Origin: Candidatus Enterousia sp.
GTDB taxonomy: Bacteria; Pseudomonadota; Alphaproteobacteria; Rs-D84
Assembly (NCBI GenBank): GCA_045648665.1
Contig: JAZROL010000019.1
Span: 1 to 59,208, forward strand
Reading direction: 5' to 3'
DNA length: 59,208 bases
In this document: one piece after another, positions 918-59,157 of the stretch
Position numbering within the stretch: position 1 is the first letter of the stretch
Layout: each line of letters opens with the position of its first letter
Position numbers and translations under genes: made by a program
Notes under the pieces: model-generated
Seen by the model: only the letters and a program-made list of their open reading frames with translations
Databases searched by the model: none
What the model was told of the DNA's origin: nothing

Positions 918-1619
918 ATGAAATTTATACCGATAATTTTTATCGCCTTTTTACCAACTTTTGTTTGGGCCGATGATTTATATACAAATAACATAGTCAA
1001 TGGTTGTGGTGATGCTTATTATTACAAAGCAGAATTTGAACCGATAAGCTATACTTGTTTATCGGGACAATTTTTACCAGCGGGCGCAATATCATGTCAA
1101 TCATGTCCACAAACATATACTTGTAATGGCGGAACTTTTACTTTTAATGCGAATCAAACACAGGGGCTTAGCGATGGTGATATATTAGTCACAAATGCAA
1201 TTGGCAGTTGTTCAACACAATTTAATCAAAGTTTTAGTGCTATATTTGAACCGATAACTTATACTTGTTCTGCCGGTTATTATTTACCTGCGGATGGAAT
1301 TTCTTGCACAGAATGCCTGGAAAATAATTATTGTCCCGGTGGAACATACACATTTAACGAAACAACGGCGCAAGGTATAACCCAATGTCCAAATGATACG
1401 CCGTATGCGCCGGCTGGGTCTGCATCTGTTAATCAATGTTATAAAGTAATAAATTTGAATTGGTATCTGGATGAAAACGCAACAACACCACTAACAGTGC
1501 AACCCGCCGCACAAAAATGTATATATGGTCAAAAGATTACTTTACCGGATACCAACCCAACGAAACCAGGGTATATCTTTGCCGGGTGGAGATTACGAAC
1601 CGCCCCAGCGCAGCAATAA
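918..1619 (+). CDS. Secreted Cys-rich protein with C-terminal InlB B-repeat-like domain
   Basis: Signal peptide, two copies of FEPI(S/T)YTC..G..LPA..ISC..C....(T/Y)C.GGT(F/Y)TFN, C-terminal INLNWY...CIYGQKITLPDTNPTKPGYIFAGW. Confidence 0.75.
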   Translation: MKFIPIIFIAFLPTFVWADDLYTNNIVNGCGDAYYYKAEFEPISYTCLSGQFLPAGAISCQSCPQTYTCNGGTFTFNANQTQGLSDGDILVTNAIGSCSTQFNQSFSAIFEPITYTCSAGYYLPADGISCTECLENNYCPGGTYTFNETTAQGITQCPNDTPYAPAGSASVNQCYKVINLNWYLDENATTPLTVQPAAQKCIYGQKITLPDTNPTKPGYIFAGWRLRTAPAQQ

Positions 1620-9071: not shown

Positions 9072-10352
9072 ATGTTAGATATCAAATTTATTCGTGAAAA
9101 CCCTGATATAGTAAAAAACGCTTGTGCGGTAAAAAACTTTCCAGATGTCGTTGATGAATTATTGGCATTGGATGTTCGCGTTCGTGAATTGAAAACAATT
9201 ACTCAAACTAAAACGGCCGAAAAAAATAAAATATCAAAAGAAATTCCAACCGCAACCGATAAAGCACCTTTGATTGCAAAATCAAAAGCAATCGGCGATG
9301 AAATTGCTGCAGATTTGGCTGAATTGGCTGAAAAAGAAGCACAGTTAAATGATTTGCTTCATCGTGTTCCGCAAATTCCAGATGCCTCTGCCCCTGTTGG
9401 TGCGGACGAATCCGCTAATGTAGAAATTCGCCGTGTTGGCACACCAAGAACATTTGATTTTACACCACGTCCACAATGGGAATTGTTGGAAATGAATGGT
9501 TGGTGGATGCCTGAAAAAATTGCTGGTATCTGTGGCACACGTGTTTATGCACTTTGTGGTGAATTAGCCGAACTCGCTTTGGCTGTTCAAACTTATGTGG
9601 TTCAAAATTTGATTTCCAAAGGCTTTAAATACATTGAATGCCCATCAATTACAAAACCACAAACTATATTTAATGCCGGACATTTTATGGGCTCTGATTT
9701 ATCAGTCATGAACAATGATGTATTTATGTTGGAAAACACAGATAGATGTTTGGCTGGTACCGCAGAAATTATTATCAATTCTTTGCATGCAGACGAAATA
9801 TTGAACGAAAACGATTTACCGATGAAATACGCGGGCTATTCACCTTGTTTCCGCAAAGAAGCAGGCGCGGCCGGTCGCGACACACGCGGAATAGTTCGTG
9901 TACACCAATTTAACAAGGTTGAACAATATGTTTTCTGCAAACCTGAACAAAGCGATGAAATGCACGAACATATATTAAATAACCTTTGCGAATTTATGGA
10001 AGCTTTTGAATTACCTTATCGTGTAATTGCAAATTCAACAGGCGACATGGGATTCAACAAAGTTAAAATGAATGACGTAGAAGCATGGTTCCCATCTGAA
10101 AACGCGTATCGCGAATTGGGTTCTTGTTCATCAATTGGTCAATTCCAGGCACGCAGAACAAACACTCGTTATCGTGAAAATGCGACTGGCGATGTAAAAT
10201 ATGTTGCAACATTAAATAACACCGCAATTGCCCTGCCACGTGCTTTGGTTCCGATTATAGAAAATCACCAAAACCCAGATGGTTCGGTTAACATTCCAAA
10301 GGCATTACAACCATACATGGGTGGCCGCACAAAAATCGGTGGCAAACATTAA
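9072..10352 (+). CDS. serS: Serine--tRNA ligase
   Basis: MLDIKFIREN N-terminal coiled coil, CFRKEAGAAGRDTRGIVRVHQFNKVE, TLNNTAIALPR. Confidence 0.97.
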   Translation: MLDIKFIRENPDIVKNACAVKNFPDVVDELLALDVRVRELKTITQTKTAEKNKISKEIPTATDKAPLIAKSKAIGDEIAADLAELAEKEAQLNDLLHRVPQIPDASAPVGADESANVEIRRVGTPRTFDFTPRPQWELLEMNGWWMPEKIAGICGTRVYALCGELAELALAVQTYVVQNLISKGFKYIECPSITKPQTIFNAGHFMGSDLSVMNNDVFMLENTDRCLAGTAEIIINSLHADEILNENDLPMKYAGYSPCFRKEAGAAGRDTRGIVRVHQFNKVEQYVFCKPEQSDEMHEHILNNLCEFMEAFELPYRVIANSTGDMGFNKVKMNDVEAWFPSENAYRELGSCSSIGQFQARRTNTRYRENATGDVKYVATLNNTAIALPRALVPIIENHQNPDGSVNIPKALQPYMGGRTKIGGKH

Positions 10353-10353
10353 T

Positions 10354-10383
10354 AAAAAAATCACCCGTTTGGGTGATTTTTTT
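10354..10383. terminator. Bidirectional intrinsic terminator
   Basis: A7-TCACCC-GTTT-GGGTGA-T7 between convergent genes. Confidence 0.85.
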
Positions 10384-10903
10384 ATCTTACATTATAAAAG
10401 TTTCTTATAAATTCTTTAAATATCCTGGCAACAAATGGAGATTCAATAACGTTAACTCTATCATTGATACGTTTTGAATCTTTTTCTATATCTTGCGCAT
10501 AACGTTCTTTTTGCCAATTTGTCTTAGCATATTCATAATTTTGAACAAAATCCAAGAAATGATAATATTGTTGCACCAACGGATATCTCATTGCAGGCAT
10601 AGCTTGATTCCAAACAATGCCTTTTGGATCTTGAACAAAATATAAAGCGCACATAAAATCTTCTGGGGCAAAATTGTGTTTTTTTGCATATTCTTTAGCA
10701 CTCGCAATCCAAGATCTTTCCGTTTTTTCCTTGGAAAAACAATCTGGTTCTTTGGCAACGATATCCATAACAACCAAACCACGCGCCGCATCGCATCTTT
10801 CGTGTAAATCCATTTTTTTCCAACGTGATTTCAAAGAATACTTTGCTAATTTCTTGTATCCAATCAAACCATCTGCAATATAATCTTGTGTTGTTTTTTC
10901 CAT
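10382..10903 (-). CDS. Hypothetical protein
   Basis: 173-aa ORF with AGGAG RBS and its own terminator. No recognisable motif. Confidence 0.7.
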   Translation of the reverse strand: MEKTTQDYIADGLIGYKKLAKYSLKSRWKKMDLHERCDAARGLVVMDIVAKEPDCFSKEKTERSWIASAKEYAKKHNFAPEDFMCALYFVQDPKGIVWNQAMPAMRYPLVQQYYHFLDFVQNYEYAKTNWQKERYAQDIEKDSKRINDRVNVIESPFVARIFKEFIRNFYNVR

Positions 10904-53382: not shown

Positions 53383-55860
53383 ATGAAAACAAAATCACAA
53401 CACAAACGCAGAACCATCTGGTGGATAATACCCATAATCGGGGTATTTTTGTTATCTGTTATTATTGTTCCACCTATGATTAACCTTAATTCATTAAAAC
53501 CAAACCTAGAAAACGTGATTTACAATCAAACCGGAATCACAGCAAAAATTCATGGCAATGTAAATTTCAGTTTATTGGGTCAAGCAACTATAATCGCACA
53601 CAATATATCCGTTCCAAATGGCGTAATTCAATCTTTTGAATTTGCGATACCATGGCACAATATATTCAATATGAAAAAAGCATCTATCTCAGGCGACATA
53701 GTTATAAATGGTGCATCTTTATTCATAGAAAAAATAGTTCCTTTTGATATAAACGAAACAATAGTATTAAATAATTCTAAATTTGAATTTTTGAATAAAA
53801 CGTATGATGTTGTATCTGCTACATTGTCAAAAAATTATGTTAATGCACTTGTTCGTACAGACCAACACAAATACGAAATAAAATCTGTAAACAATAATTT
53901 TGTGATTCAAAATAAAAACAATGATTTAAATATTTCTGGCGAATTATTGCCAAATGGTACAGCAATTGCGACAATAGATATAACTGCACAAAATATAAAC
54001 AGATGGTTTGAATTTGAAAAACCAAAAATAACTGGTCGCTTTCCAATTTCCGCAAACGTGTTTTGGGATGGCGGTTACGGGTTTAAATTTTCACATATAT
54101 CTGCAAATGGTGTAACAGGCGAAGCAATTTTACAACCAGATGGATATAAAATAATATCGCTGAAAACAAATACAGCAGATTATGACATGTCTTTTATTTT
54201 AAAAGATATAGATTTATTGAAAAATTCTACACTTAATTTAAACTTACATGGCAAGATAAAATTTCTTGATAAAACTTTTTCACGTTTAACAGTGAACATT
54301 GTTGGTTCAAACGATAAAATACAAATTATAAAAATAAATGCAGATGATTTGAATATATCTGGTGGATACATCGATAAAAATGGCGCACATAATGTTTATG
54401 TATCTTTGCCAGAAAACAATATTCCAACAACATGTATATTTAATGGAACGCCAACAAATTGGTCTTGCACAGAATTTTCATATAACAATGATATATTTGG
54501 AAACATAACGGTAAAAGATGATAATTTTGATATTAATGTTAATTCGAAACGCCCTTTGTCTAATATCCAAGATATTATAAATTCCGTTAAATTTATTGGC
54601 ACACATGGCACTATAAAATTTGATTTTCCAAATATGTCTGGAATTATTCATATGGACGGAAAAAGAATTGATGTTAAATACAATTTTGTAAAAAATCACA
54701 CCTTAAAATGGGCTGATATAAACCTGCCTTTTATCCCAGAAAAAATGTTAAATGAAACAGGCAATTTTGTTTGGGATAAAAACAGTATGATTTTTATTCC
54801 AGATTCTAAAAAATGGAATTTAACAACAACAAAAGATTATTTTTATATATCTGGTGATAATTTTAAAAAATGGTTTTCAAATTTAGATTTACAATCAATC
54901 AAAGATTTACCATACACAATATCAGGAAATTATAAACGCGGAAACATATCCAATTTGGACATGAATATCGCCGGGCATAAATTCATAGGTTCTGTATCAA
55001 ACAAAACAATTACATTAAAAACAGATATATTAAATCTTGATTCTTTTATATCTACAGATTTTACAGATAATTTTGAAGAATTATCTTTCTTTACCCCATT
55101 ACCAATAACAATACCTTTTGATATTGATGCCAATGTATCTTTATCTGCAAAAGCATTAATTTATAAAGGGCAAAAATATGATAATTTTGTTTATTCTTTG
55201 AAACAAAACAAACAAACTTTTTCAATAAGCGATTCAAATCGTGGGAATATGCTTGCCACAATATCAAAAAATAAAAACAATTACGATATACAAATACAAC
55301 TTAATAAATTCCTGTGGGATACAACATTGTTAAAACCAGATATGCCATTAAACGTGTCTAATACTATGATAACCGCCGAAATAAATTTAAAAACATCTGG
55401 AAAAATAGCAAACGATGTAATTAATAATATACATGGTAAATTTGATGCATCTTTGACCGGCGGATATATATATGGTCTTGGATTATCGAAATTTTATTCA
55501 TCTGCACAAAACATAAATATCTTAAACGCGGAATACGCATTATCAAGCGCAATAGAAGATGGAATCACCCAAATCAAGAAAATGCATATTATTGGTGAAT
55601 ATAATCAAGGCAACATAAACACTACATCGCCATTTACATTAACTATGAAACATTCAGAAGCAACCGGAACAATAGACATAAAAAACAATCAAATGTTTGC
55701 CACACTTAATTTACTATTACGTGGAACATCACCGTCACCAACACCAATAGAAATAACAGTATTACCAAATGGACACAGGGAATATTCTTTATCTGAAATA
55801 ATGATGAATTTTGACACAGAATACATGCGCAGTTTTATAAAACTTCACGATAAATTTTAA
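53383..55860 (+). CDS. AsmA-like protein
   Basis: N-terminal TM helix then [10 protein letters not shown]...TG....[10 protein letters not shown]. Long beta-rich body, C-terminal G..I.G..L and G.I motifs typical of AsmA. Confidence 0.65.
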
Positions 55861-55909: not shown

Positions 55910-57673
55910 TTAACCACGTTTACGAACTTGAATATGAACATCTCGTAATTGTTGTTCGCTTACTTCATTAGGAGAGCCCATTAACAAATCTTGTCCACGC
56001 TGATTAGCAGGGAACGCGACAACATCACGTACAGCCTCTTCACCAACAATCTCACAAACCAAACGGTCTATACCAAATGCACATCCACCGTGTGGCGGGG
56101 CACCGTATTGGAACGAAGTATAAAGTCCAGCAAAATTCTTTTTCACATTTTCAACATCATAACCCGCTATGTTAAAACATTTCAACATGACTTCCGGATT
56201 ATAATTACGTAAACCACCGCTGCAAATTTCGATACCGTTCATAACCATATCAAATTGCGCAGCCTTAATTTCCAAAGGATTCTTTGTATCCAATTCTTCC
56301 AATGTTGCAATAGGATAAGAAAAAGGATTATGTGTCATTTGAATTGCACCCGTTTCTTCATTTTTTTCAAAGAACGGGAAATTATCAACCCAACAGAATC
56401 TGTATTCTTTTGGATTTATCAATCCTAAATCTTCACCCAATTTATTACGTAATTTACCTGCTGCCTTGGCGGCTTTTTCTTCTTCATCACAAATAAAGAA
56501 TAACGAAGAATTATCCCCGGCAATTTCATGCAATTTTGCAATACGTTCACTATCTAATTTTTTTGCAACGGGCCCTTTGGCTTCATCGGCAAAAATGATA
56601 TAACCCAAACCACCTAACCCCAGTTCTTTTACCGCATATTCACCAAGTTTATCGAACCAAGAACGTGGTTTGTCACTTGAATTTGGTGCCGGCACAGCAC
56701 GTACAACCGCGCCATTTTCAATCGCATTTGCAAAAATACCAAAATCAGACCCGCGGAAAACATCCGTCACATCTGATATCAAAATAGGATTACGCATATC
56801 AGGTTTATCGCAACCATATTTCAACATAGCATCATCAAAAGAAATATGTGGTATTTCATCACTGACAATTGCATCTGGGACAAAAGTTTTAATAAGTTTT
56901 GGTAATAATTCTTCACCGACAGCCTGAACATCTGGCAAATCAACAAAAGACATTTCCAAATCTAATTGATAAAATTCCAACAATCTGTCCGCACGCAAAT
57001 CTTCATCTCGAAAACAAGGCGCAATTTGGAAATATCTATCAAATCCAGAAACTTGTAATAATTGTTTAAACATCTGTGGCGCCTGAGGCAGGGCATAAAA
57101 TTTACCATGATGCAAACGTGAAGGAACCAAGAAACAACGTGCACCTTCTGGTGAATCCGCAGTTAAAAGCGGTGTTTGAAATTCTGAAAAACCCATATCC
57201 CACATTTGGTCACGCAACCATTTAATAACACGATTACGCATTAAAATATTTTTATGCAATTTTTCACGACGCAAATCCAAAAAGCGATATTGATAACGCA
57301 AATCTTCTGGCACATCATCATCACCAAACACCTGGAAAGGCAAAACATCAGCATTTGTTAACACTTCCCAATTTTGCGCTTTGATTTCAATATGACCGGT
57401 TGGGATTTTATCGTTAATAGCGTCATCGGCACGTGCAACGACAGTACCAGTAATTTTAACAACAGATTCAGGATGAATTTTTTCCAAATTTTCATCACCA
57501 CCATCAAACACACACTGTGTAATTCCATAATTATCACGCAAATCAACAAACAACAGCGAACCATGGTCGCGCTTACGATGAACCCAGCCAGACAAAGTCA
57601 CCGTTTCACCAACATTTTGCGCATTTAATTCACCACAAGTATGCGTTCTGTACTTAGATTTCAAAGAAAGCAT
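55910..57673 (-). CDS. aspS: Aspartate--tRNA ligase (probably non-discriminating Asp/Asn)
   Basis: YRTHTCGEL, RKRDHG, ALPQAPQ.FKQLL, CFRDEDLRADR, GAPPHGG.A.G.DRL. Confidence 0.97.
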   Translation of the reverse strand: MLSLKSKYRTHTCGELNAQNVGETVTLSGWVHRKRDHGSLLFVDLRDNYGITQCVFDGGDENLEKIHPESVVKITGTVVARADDAINDKIPTGHIEIKAQNWEVLTNADVLPFQVFGDDDVPEDLRYQYRFLDLRREKLHKNILMRNRVIKWLRDQMWDMGFSEFQTPLLTADSPEGARCFLVPSRLHHGKFYALPQAPQMFKQLLQVSGFDRYFQIAPCFRDEDLRADRLLEFYQLDLEMSFVDLPDVQAVGEELLPKLIKTFVPDAIVSDEIPHISFDDAMLKYGCDKPDMRNPILISDVTDVFRGSDFGIFANAIENGAVVRAVPAPNSSDKPRSWFDKLGEYAVKELGLGGLGYIIFADEAKGPVAKKLDSERIAKLHEIAGDNSSLFFICDEEEKAAKAAGKLRNKLGEDLGLINPKEYRFCWVDNFPFFEKNEETGAIQMTHNPFSYPIATLEELDTKNPLEIKAAQFDMVMNGIEICSGGLRNYNPEVMLKCFNIAGYDVENVKKNFAGLYTSFQYGAPPHGGCAFGIDRLVCEIVGEEAVRDVVAFPANQRGQDLLMGSPNEVSEQQLRDVHIQVRKRG

Positions 57674-57868
57674 TTCTACACCCTTTTATATTTTTGTTTC
57701 GGCGCTAAAAAACTAGATTCCAGTACCAATTCAAATCTTAAATTACAGGGGCGCTAAGATTTTTTCGCGCGGTGCCACCCTGCTTTTATAACTTTTAATG
57801 AAAACGAACACTACGTGGTTGTCAGTCACATCAAACGCGTTCTATTTTCACAAAACTACATCTTTTGC
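57674..57868 (-). promoter_or_regulatory. T-box riboswitch leader of aspS
   Basis: On the minus strand AGCAGGGUGGCACCGCG (57768-57784) pairs with CGCCCCU (57747-57753). Bulge UGGC matches tRNA 3' GCCA. Short Stem I (57799-57850) has GAC in its apical loop. Confidence 0.85.
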
Positions 57869-57874
57869 CAACGG

Positions 57875-57903
57875 ATTATATAAACGTTTTATTTAATTTG
57901 CAA
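57875..57903 (-). promoter_or_regulatory. Sigma70-type promoter of the T-box/aspS transcript
   Basis: TTGCAA-17 bp-TATAAT on the minus strand. Confidence 0.75.
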
Positions 57904-57928: not shown

Positions 57929-58168
57929 TTAACTGTCCAATAATTCGCTTTTCAAAGATTCATATTCACGTTGTGAAATTGCTTTTTGTTTATATAAATC
58001 GTGCAGTTGTTTTAATTGTTCTAACAAAGCGCTTTTATCAGGCGCAGATTCACATGCTTTATTTTTATTTGCCAACGCAACCGCCAAAACTATTACCGCC
58101 ACGACCAAGCCAATTAAAAATAAAAACATAAAACCACCGACAATAGTATCTATGATTTCCTCTTCCAT
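57929..58168 (-). CDS. Small membrane protein with C-terminal SHOCT domain
   Basis: TM helix then LEQLKQLHDLYKQKAISQREYESLKSELL. Start ATG 58168 after AAGGG. Confidence 0.82.
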   Translation of the reverse strand: MEEEIIDTIVGGFMFLFLIGLVVAVIVLAVALANKNKACESAPDKSALLEQLKQLHDLYKQKAISQREYESLKSELLDS

Positions 58169-58264
58169 TTTAAACCCTTTTGTTTTGATTATTTGTATAT
58201 CCAAAATTATAAAAACCTTTCACCCGTGTATCAAGAATTTTATTATGGAATTTTAACGTAAAAC

Positions 58265-58530: not shown

Positions 58531-59157
58531 ATGCTGAAAAAAATATTTTTTATTTTTGTATGTTTATTTACAAACACAGTTTTTGCATCGTGTCCAACTG
58601 GTTATACCACACCAACACATAACATAGATTTGGATTATAATATATCAACCACATTGCCTGAATTAATCGAACCAACACAACAAACACCAAATAATGATAT
58701 ATTTGTCTTGTCAGAAATGGACGGAACGTGTACAAGTGGCTATGAACCATATGTTATAAACGACAATATATCACTCTTTGCAATCGAAACCCCAACATTA
58801 TGTCCCGAAGGGCAATACCTTAACACAAATGGCACATGTACAAACTACGCAACGTGTTCCGGCAACTATAAAAAATACAATTATGCGAATAATACCGTCA
58901 TAGAACAAAACGAAAACGATGAATGTGACAGTGGTTATGAACTATACACAGATTTAACACGTTGTGATGCTTCAACAGATTATCAATGCGTTGATTTACC
59001 GACCATAATAAACCTGAATTGGTATGACCGGGATACGATAATAGCAACGAACACATGCAGATACGGACAACCAATAACATTACCACCGGAACCAACACGT
59101 CCTGGGTATATATTTTCCGGTTGGCGATTACGTACAGAACAAAACAGCGGAGAATAA
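58531..59157 (+). CDS. Secreted Cys-rich protein with C-terminal InlB B-repeat-like domain
   Basis: Signal peptide, repeated C.(T/S)GY motifs, INLNWYDRDT...CRYGQPITLPPEPTRPGYIFSGW. Confidence 0.78.
   Translation: MLKKIFFIFVCLFTNTVFASCPTGYTTPTHNIDLDYNISTTLPELIEPTQQTPNNDIFVLSEMDGTCTSGYEPYVINDNISLFAIETPTLCPEGQYLNTNGTCTNYATCSGNYKKYNYANNTVIEQNENDECDSGYELYTDLTRCDASTDYQCVDLPTIINLNWYDRDTIIATNTCRYGQPITLPPEPTRPGYIFSGWRLRTEQNSGE

Follow-up and report, generated by a model that had tools for sequence, protein, structure and literature searches.

Can a T-box riboswitch that lacks most of the canonical RNA still regulate an aminoacyl-tRNA synthetase gene, and can it do so in an alphaproteobacterium? The question is raised by the leader of aspS, the gene for aspartyl-tRNA synthetase (AspRS), in the 59,208-nt contig JAZROL010000019.1 of Candidatus Enterousia sp. 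(GCA_045648665.1; the whole of this stretch of DNA is referred to below as the window). A first-pass annotation, made from the sequence alone, had read this leader, which lies on the minus strand at 57903–57674, as a T-box riboswitch with an ultrashort Stem I, probably acting on translation. We have followed this reading through the genome's own tRNA genes, the leaders of related aspS genes and the genomes of the order, and put the probability that the leader is a working minimal T-box riboswitch controlling aspS, with translation as the most likely output, at roughly 0.6.

The T-box core and Stem I of the aspS leader

The promoter, the leader of about 195 nt, Stem I, its 9-nt apical loop and the T-box all lie where the first-pass annotation had placed them. 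The T-box discriminator core (AGGG-UGGCACC-GCGC...GCGC-CCCU, 57746–57782, minus strand) is a two-helix element. Its 5′ side, AGGGUGGCACCGCG at 57781–57768, is followed by the ...CGCCCCU of the 3′ side; helix A1 is CAGGG/CCCUG, helix A2 is GCGC/GCGC, the bulge is the 7-nt UGGCACC (57777–57771), and the loop is GAAAAAAUCUUA. At gathering thresholds, Rfam detects two tRNAs only and no T-box in the window. In E-value mode, the T-box model RF00230 matches 57744–57892 (E = 5.8e-5 in a search of 601 nt), and when it is run over the whole 1.0-Mb genome the aspS leader is its sole match (E = 2.2e-5). The alignment covers the T-box half (AGGGUGGNACCGCG...CGNCCCU) at high posterior and recognises the base of Stem I, with 15 nt taking the place of some 84 Stem I consensus positions; no real helix corresponds to the consensus Stem III, and the consensus U of the G.U pair that ends helix A2 is a C.

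All 30 aspS loci at 72–87% protein identity carry GGTGGCACC upstream, and this sequence was not found in L061, the first more distant locus examined. In the genus-level loci taken from a genome search the motif lies 60–139 nt 5′ of the AspRS match in 25 cases out of 25. After removal of four duplicates and of the unrelated opposite-strand T-box of locus L056, 50 distinct leaders, the window's among them, could be compared. Thirty-one columns are invariant in this set, including the UGA of the putative kink-turn (K-turn), the AC of the specifier, GGGUGGCACCGCGC and GCGCCCC, and the extensions of helices A1 and A2 covary. In an ungapped alignment of the core, with a structure of 22 pairs in four helices, standard pairs occupy 90.8% of the cells as compared to 76.7% in shuffles, and both sides have changed in 14 of the 22 pairs. 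Covariation amounts to 0.462, against 0.189 in shuffles (none of 500 reaches 0.462) and 0.06–0.11 when the partners are slid by 1–3 columns.

Stem I is an ultrashort hairpin with a K-turn-like internal loop (57799–57850, minus strand), and all 50 leaders fit the pattern NNN-GA-N-NNN / 9-nt loop / NNN-N-[G/U]A. In the window, the lower (C) stem is UGAAAA-UA-GAACGC / GUGUUC-G-UUUUCA and the K-turn has a GUUU loop with GA (57832–57831) facing UA (57813–57812). The upper stem of 3 bp (GUG/CAC) is topped by the apical specifier loop ACUGACAAC (57818–57826), in which the specifier GAC (57823–57821) is followed by the purine A57820. Throughout the 50 leaders this loop is 9 nt long and reads NNN-RAC-R-NN: position 4 is G in 38 and A in 12, positions 5–6 are always AC and position 7 is always a purine. 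The upper stem covaries among the leaders (GUG/CAC, GCG/CGC, AUG/CAU, ACG/CGU), with both-side changes in 2 of its 3 pairs, and the lower stem is variable, with such changes in 6 of 6. The K-turn pattern NNU-GA-N...N-GA is present in 49/50 leaders, the 3b.3n pairs being non-Watson-Crick (U.G, A.A, C.C, C.U). No distal tRNA-elbow platform is found: Stem I stops at the specifier loop, 3 bp above the K-turn. Counted by eye, 15 of the 50 leaders (e.g. L009, L014, L025, L026, L049 and L053) also have Stem I interrupted, six pairs down from the K-turn, by a conserved internal loop that reads GGG-CGC...AAAA-CCC or GGGGGCGGGGC...AAACCC. The 5′ side of this loop, GGGCGC, complements the T-box 3′ strand GCGCCC as well; the window's clade does not have the loop.

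Between Stem I and the T-box runs a purine-rich linker of about 16–17 nt (UUAAAAGUUAUAAAAG, 57783–57798, minus strand), in which the bases A, A, G, A, A and A are near-invariant or invariant, and the conserved string AAAAG-UNAU-AA stands immediately 5′ of helix A1. None of the 50 aligned leaders contains a Stem II, a IIA/B pseudoknot or a Stem III helix: in every one of them only 28 columns (43–70), holding no helix, separate the six counted pairs of the lower stem from A1. Conservation and covariation across the leaders thus bear out what had been read from a single sequence, namely a T-box with an ultrashort Stem I, an apical specifier and no Stem II. A discriminator purine motif, 5′-RRRxG-Stem III-AA-3′, is described in passages of PMC7583486 as flanking Stem III. 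Judged by its sequence, the AAAAG-UNAU-AA string resembles this motif minus the Stem III helix, and the purine string of the linker probably serves in place of the Stem III flanks.

The likely tRNA signal and the probable specificity of AspRS

Among the 44 tRNA genes of the genome, those for tRNA-Asp(GUC) and tRNA-Asn(GUU) alike encode G73 followed by CCA, which matches UGGC; the match of the bulge to G73, proposed earlier for tRNA-Asp, is thereby confirmed on the genome's own tRNA-Asp(GUC). The specifier GAC, with A after it, precedes aspS in the window and matches the tRNA-Asp anticodon GUC. Because the defining core is in place and both the tRNAs and the gene agree with it, we consider it very likely that the element is a functional tRNA-binding T-box.

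The first-pass annotation had looked to the conservation of GAC and of the T-box in orthologous leaders. The T-box is invariant and the specifier stays RAC, but GAC itself is replaced by AAC in the 12 leaders with A at position 4 (L010, L016, L023, L024, L033, L035, L041, L042, L048, L051, L052 and L055). On the AspRS tree, GAC and AAC change into one another 11 times, with at least 7 changes forced by well-supported branches, and this number is no lower than that obtained with shuffled labels (mean 11.0).

No asnS gene exceeds the cut-off in the assembly (1.0 Mb, 34 contigs, 94.7% complete): the best candidate reaches 164 bits as compared to the 342.6 required and is an AsnRS-like asparagine synthetase A. 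The gatB gene is present (483 bits). Outside the window, contig C29 of the genome carries, at 9880–10797, a 341-aa open reading frame (ORF) that resembles the core of AsnRS, has no anticodon-binding domain and matches asparagine synthetase A best, at 244.7 bits (cut-off 389). In bacteria that make Asn-tRNA via GatCAB, a non-discriminating AspRS is established. Since asnS was not found and gatB is present, we infer that the AspRS of the window is non-discriminating too. The toggling between GAC and AAC, taken with the G73 shared by tRNA-Asp and tRNA-Asn, fits such an enzyme, and either of its substrate tRNAs seems to serve as the signal.

The Asn/Asp T-boxes of Firmicutes, which are canonical and transcriptional, likewise tie the AspRS/GatCAB route to the charging of tRNA-Asp or tRNA-Asn, and Saad et al., listed among the references of PMC4201532, are said to have described in 2012 an Asn/Asp-specific T-box on aspS or the tRNA-dependent amidation pathway of Clostridium acetobutylicum. 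The difference is that here the specifier toggles between GAC and AAC on the same gene among close relatives. T-box regulation of aspS is also mentioned in a passage of PMC2494555. The first-pass annotation had spoken of an unexpected lineage and an unexpected gene: the lineage is indeed alphaproteobacterial, but finding a T-box on aspS is no surprise.

How the element may control translation

A Shine-Dalgarno-like sequence (SD), AGGGUGU (57678–57684, minus strand), stands 4 nt 5′ of the ATG. Its pairing with the T-box 3′ strand, GGGUGU with GCGCCC, had been pointed out by the first-pass annotation; it comprises 6 bp at −10.4 kcal/mol and is the strongest single duplex in the window. The same SD pairs at −8.5 kcal/mol with 57705–57701, part of the 3′ arm (e4) of a hairpin downstream of the T-box, and at −8.2 kcal/mol with the T-box 5′ strand. 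This ribosome-binding site (RBS) is unusual for the genome: among the motifs upstream of 763 long ORFs, AAGG is counted 274 times, AGGA 218 times, GGTGT 14 times and GGTGCC not once. The 16S 3′ end is absent from the assembly. As to a terminator, none had been evident at first sight; the scan of the window found no terminator-like site either, and a permissive search for hairpins with a U-tract gave poor candidates in 2 of the 50 leaders only. With no conserved terminator and an RBS that complements T-box strands, control at the level of translation is the most plausible output, and we believe that the element is likely to act there.

In the mechanism that we propose, the anticodon GUC of uncharged tRNA-Asp would pair with GAC in the apical loop of the K-turn hairpin, and the tRNA 3′ end, G73-C-C-A, with the UGGC of the T-box bulge. 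Where sister species carry AAC as the specifier, this role would fall to tRNA-Asn. Without tRNA, the GGGUGU site would be paired with a GCGCC(C) strand, which may be either the T-box 3′ strand or its downstream copy in e4. Once tRNA is bound, the T-box helix would be locked and the RBS released.

The downstream hairpin adds to the earlier description, and gives the genus overall a more elaborate platform than the single pairing first noticed; it is conserved in the genus, present in 48/50 leaders, and degenerate in the window (57700–57728, minus strand; −7.3 kcal/mol), where its arms are e3 UGGUACUG (57728–57721) and e4 UUUUAGCGCCG (57710–57700). The genus consensus of e3 is GGGUGCC, of which GGUGCC is conserved in at least 90% of the leaders; the GGU was forced by the regular expression used as search pattern for e3, the leader alignment being an independent support. 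Variation in the hairpin is one-sided, with e3 fixed and e4 drifting through wobble-compatible changes: the U of e3 pairs with G in 31 leaders and with A in 15, its G with C in 31 and with U in 15. The second C of e3 is unpaired in 21 of the 48 hairpins yet conserved in 45, and the base after it is a purine in 47. Together with this purine, GGUGCC complements the bulge (U)GGCACC exactly, and its GCCR copies G73-C-C-A of the tRNA. In neighbouring genera, 8 of the 10 leaders examined (L148, L150–L155 and L157) have no such hairpin, and their RBS reads GGUGCC, GGUGUC, GGUGUU or GGUGCA, complementary to the GGCACC of the bulge. Of 13 short leaders, 10 have an RBS whose duplex with the T-box 5′ strand is stronger than that with the 3′ strand (−14.3 vs −6.0 kcal/mol in L148), and the GGUGCC of L148, L151 and L154 reaches −14.0 to −14.4 kcal/mol with the 5′ strand. 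Since e3 of the genus is an exact complement of the bulge and the RBS of neighbouring genera has that same sequence, the bulge may double as a competitor site in the genus at large.

This suggests a genus-level variant of the mechanism, in which, without tRNA, e3 (GGUGCC-R) would occupy the bulge and leave e4 free to pair with the RBS; the tRNA 3′ end, mimicked by GCCR (G73-C74-C75-A76), would then displace e3, so that the hairpin closes and the RBS opens, and in the short leaders of neighbouring genera the RBS GGUGCC would itself be the competitor. We regard such a relay as possible but doubtful. The conservation of e3 against a drifting partner, including a second C that is often unpaired, speaks for it, as does the strong pairing of the RBS with the 5′ strand in L148, L151 and L154; that the search pattern imposed the GGU takes some of this weight away. 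The T-box 5′ strand pairs more strongly with e3 than the 3′ strand does in 45/48 leaders (median −13.8 vs −11.4 kcal/mol). A fold with the T-box GGCACC paired to e3 is near-isoenergetic with the T-box fold, exceeding it by 1.9 kcal/mol on average (range −4.0 to +6.9). The classical model, a pairing of the T-box 3′ strand with the hairpin 5′ arm, lies 5.3 kcal/mol above the T-box fold on average and was ranked under the bulge model. With the 5′ arm of the hairpin removed, e4 pairs with the SD in 47/48 leaders, and cognate pairs of e4 and SD are stronger than non-cognate ones (−7.10 vs −6.33 kcal/mol, permutation p = 0.0012), a comparison confounded by relatedness. Set against these figures is the geometry of the core, from which a full 6–7-bp helix on the bulge appears incompatible with stacked A1 and A2. 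Moreover, the hairpin (mean −12.4 kcal/mol) is always stabler than the e4:SD duplex (mean −6.5 kcal/mol), the bulge, being invariant, leaves covariation nothing to test, and the e3 of the window, GGUACU in place of GGUGCC, deviates twice from the consensus and pairs with the T-box 5′ strand at only −5.2 kcal/mol. Because of this degenerate e3, direct sequestration by the GCGCC(C) strands appears, in the window's species, better supported than the route through the hairpin arm.

The last three points weigh also against a settled mechanism, and further observations speak against our preferred reading, that of a working T-box riboswitch. The first-pass annotation had named the Rfam T-box model as a check, and the outcome was divided: the match in E-value mode amounts to 30.5 bits, far under the gathering score of 93. 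The low score is explained by most of the canonical RNA being missing (distal Stem I, Stem II, IIA/B pseudoknot and Stem III helix); of the domains behind the missed threshold, the platform and Stem II are not universal, but the Stem III helix is thought to be. Some of these domains are described as needed: Stem III as indispensable for tRNA binding by the antiterminator (passages of PMC7583486 and PMC11297988), and Stem II in the ultrashort type, its truncation having abolished tRNA binding in the M. tuberculosis ileS T-box (a passage of PMC11297988). According to the same passages, Stem II is missing only in glycine T-boxes, which retain a long Stem I (PMC11297988), and tRNA capture is held to need either the elbow platform of Stem I or the clamp formed by Stem II and the pseudoknot (PMC7583486, PMC11297988). 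The terminal pair of helix A2 is G-C in 50/50 leaders (columns 83 and 112) and not the G.U wobble that a passage of PMC7583486 describes as a steric sensor of the aminoacyl group. Simple folding, finally, shows no clean switch. Over the whole leader, the minimum free energy (MFE) is no better than that of shuffles (z = −0.57); the T-box helix and the downstream hairpin are at or near the MFE already without tRNA; the mean unpaired probability of the SD is 0.48 in free folding, as compared to 0.52 when the T-box is imposed and 0.45 when its 5′ strand is made unavailable; the SD is more accessible in the ON than in the OFF state in only 34/50 leaders; and the number of paired RBS nucleotides in the alternative fold goes up in 23, stays equal in 13 and goes down in 12 of 48.

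Features peculiar to the window point the same way, and could indicate that in this species the element is a decaying or constitutive remnant, its core persisting while aspS is no longer regulated by tRNA. The K-turn-like internal loop of the first-pass annotation is there, but it alone among the 50 leaders has UA on the non-bulged strand (2n/1n), the other 49 having GA; the K-turn loop has one extra base and the lower stem is one base out of register with the other leaders; and the hairpin, besides being weak, is the only one with A at position 3 of e3. We nonetheless judge decay improbable. A.U at 2b.2n is known in functional K-turns, all 31 genus-invariant columns are intact, including the specifier, the bulge and both T-box strands, the score with a covariance model of the leader core (88.0 bits) is within the range of the genus, and the SD still pairs with both the T-box 3′ strand and e4. 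Less probable still is transcription attenuation, in which the 70 nt 5′ of the SD would hold a terminator, non-canonical or Rho-dependent, and the T-box would act as its antiterminator. In favour of this, the majority of known T-boxes are transcriptional and canonical terminator-type T-boxes precede tyrS in sister families; in the window itself, a U6 run (57712–57707) follows a weak hairpin, AGAUUU...GGAAUCU. This weak hairpin, however, has a single G-C pair and is not kept among the closest relatives, and in relatives the U run belongs to the 3′ arm of the downstream hairpin; no alternative helix overlaps the T-box 3′ strand with a U tract after it, and the terminator searches were as negative as reported above.

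Relatives, distribution and surroundings of the element

The ultrashort class II T-boxes of actinobacterial ileS, as described in passages of PMC7778990, PMC7583486 and PMC11297988, resemble the window's element in several respects: a short Stem I presents the specifier in its terminal loop, above a K-turn (a putative one in the window), an elbow-binding distal platform and a terminator are both missing, and the RBS is complementary to a T-box strand; in the window this last feature, an SD complementary to the anti-sequestrator 3′ strand, is one of complementarity only. They differ from the window's class in host and gene, actinobacterial ileS as opposed to alphaproteobacterial aspS, and in possessing Stem II (with an S-turn purine string), a IIA/B pseudoknot and a Stem III helix, all three of which are missing here; in the related leaders, furthermore, it is to the T-box 5′ strand and bulge, not to the 3′ strand, that the G-rich competitor corresponds. 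The glyQS T-boxes, according to passages of PMC11297988 and PMC7583486, are likewise naturally without Stem II and the IIA/B pseudoknot, but have a long Stem I with an elbow platform, a Stem III and a terminator, none of which the window has.

The ileS-type class II architecture is nonetheless met on aspS, with a Stem II-like stem, in L003, L004 and L011 from the same order and in L146 from another alphaproteobacterial lineage; the domains of these leaders were named by eye. The Stem II-like stem is AGAAC...UUAGAAC in the aspS leaders L003 and L004 and AGAAA...GUAGAAU in L146; these three also have a CGGG...CCCG hairpin at the IIA/B position, and L004 and L146 an additional hairpin at the position of Stem III. 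L011, the leader of an archaeal-type aspartate--tRNA(Asn) ligase gene, has the Stem II-like stem alone. Read in this way, the sister families appear to show intermediate states between the full and the minimal architecture. Sister families also contain, in L002, L005 and L006, canonical long-Stem-I T-boxes with a UGGU bulge and a GC-rich terminator with a U tract; the gene downstream of L002 encodes an archaeal-type tyrosyl-tRNA synthetase (390.9 bits), and the ORFs of L005 and L006 have a similar N-terminus. At L056, in a metagenome-assembled genome (MAG) titled Rickettsiales bacterium, a second T-box-like element, GGUGGCACCGCGCC (1017–1206, minus strand of the locus), lies divergently upstream of the aspS leader and is preceded by a segment resembling Stem II and the pseudoknot.

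The alphaproteobacterial origin suspected by the first-pass annotation agrees with the relatives of aspS. Records at 72–87% identity are titled Candidatus Enterousia, Alphaproteobacteria bacterium, uncultured proteobacterium and once Rickettsiales bacterium, all of them gut MAGs, and the next-best records, at 52–57% identity, are mostly from Alphaproteobacteria; a passage of PMC12306168 places Ca. Enterousia in the uncultured order Rs-D84 of that class, with genomes around or below 1 Mb. Searched through the genomes of Rs-D84, the covariance model of the leader core gave a single match, of 63–100 bits, in 116 of the family's 121 other genomes. Within the genus Ca. Enterousia, 106 of 107 genomes carry one copy; five other genera together gave 10/10, and four further genera 0/1 each. 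Other families of the order gave weak matches only (24–35 bits). RF00230, run on 151 genomes from across the class, matched three, namely the window's genome, one congener and G267, the last being the only one among 149 sampled genomes of other alphaproteobacterial genera. The match in G267 is an aspS leader with an ultrashort Stem I and the specifier AAC, in which a Stem II-like stem, a IIA/B-type hairpin and an extra hairpin 5′ of the T-box can be made out by eye. No Rs-D84 genome reaches the gathering score of RF00230, the best being 90.4 bits (L002, the tyrS leader). The first-pass annotation had also suggested that the motif be sought upstream of other aminoacyl-tRNA synthetase genes: GGTGGNACC has 21 sites in its own genome, with a T-box context at the aspS site only, and neither RF00230 nor the covariance model found a T-box at any other such gene of the genome.

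Passages of two T-box surveys (PMC3766115, PMC2494555) list Firmicutes, Actinobacteria, Chloroflexi, Deinococcus-Thermus and two deltaproteobacteria, and the translational model of TBDB is described in a passage of PMC7778990 as having been run on Actinobacteria and truncated class I hits only. In the full-text literature searched, neither a T-box from this lineage nor one with this architecture is described, the supplementary tables of TBDB, which may list alphaproteobacterial entries, lying outside that search.

The leader is situated between a 91-aa ORF (57929–58204) and the aspS ORF of 587 aa (55910–57673, minus strand; ATG 57673–57671), which encodes a bacterial-type AspRS (NF001750, 732.6 bits) with the Pfam domains tRNA-synt_2, OB fold and GAD. 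Its putative promoter is sigma-70-like (57875–57903, minus strand): TTGCAA (57903–57898), a 17-nt spacer and TATAAT (57880–57875) give 10 of 12 matches, by consensus match only, and the predicted transcription start at about 57868 yields the leader length given above. The 91-aa ORF, on the minus strand, has weak matches to SHOCT and GvpG, both under the Pfam cut-offs; a 208-aa ORF with a Listeria-Bacteroides repeat domain lies at 58531–59157 on the plus strand, and no Pfam family was found in the 825-aa ORF at 53383–55860. In L026, L041, L043 and L054, a tRNA-Thr(GGU) gene ends a few bases 5′ of the aspS leader, and this closeness suggests co-transcription and processing in these relatives; the window's leader, unlike theirs, has its own promoter-like site and no tRNA gene upstream.

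Two further features of the leaders concern the region between the T-box and the SD. Fourteen nucleotides 3′ of the T-box, UAAGAUUU (57733–57740, minus strand) is a perfect complement of AAAUCUUA (57762–57755) in the T-box apical loop. The pair occurs in the leaders with this T-box loop (11/50, e.g. L013, L021, L023, L032, L033, L050 and L059), and L034 and L051 have a segment of the UAAGAUUU type with one A fewer. In an alternative fold of the relative L013 the two segments form a 9-bp hairpin, no covariation being available; judged by complementarity, the pairing could be a pseudoknot or an alternative hairpin. L021 and L046 carry between the hairpin and the SD a palindromic insert of about 27 nt (UCCCAC...GUGGGA), differing at 3 positions, which looks like a small mobile repeat; its location there indicates that the spacing between hairpin and SD is flexible.

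Taken together, the leaders form a minimal, probably translational T-box family in Alphaproteobacteria of the order Rs-D84, which extends the range of T-boxes into this class. As a tentative reading, some 100 nt – a K-turn hairpin, a purine string and a bulged T-box helix – might suffice, with the bulge acting as an anti-SD or anti-decoy site for which the tRNA 3′ end and the RBS compete, and with the specifier toggling freely between Asp and Asn since either substrate tRNA of a non-discriminating AspRS would be a valid starvation signal. A natural family of more than 100 species without an elbow platform, Stem II and pseudoknot, or Stem III implies either that the minimal requirements for tRNA recognition need redefining or that unknown compensating contacts exist, perhaps provided by the purine linker or by the long lower stem under the K-turn. 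The order Rs-D84 offers a natural reduction series, from full class II in sister families to the minimal form in the window's family, and the specifier, with its 7 or more switches between GAC and AAC, a natural experiment in specificity; a tRNA sensor of 100 nt would also be attractive for engineering.

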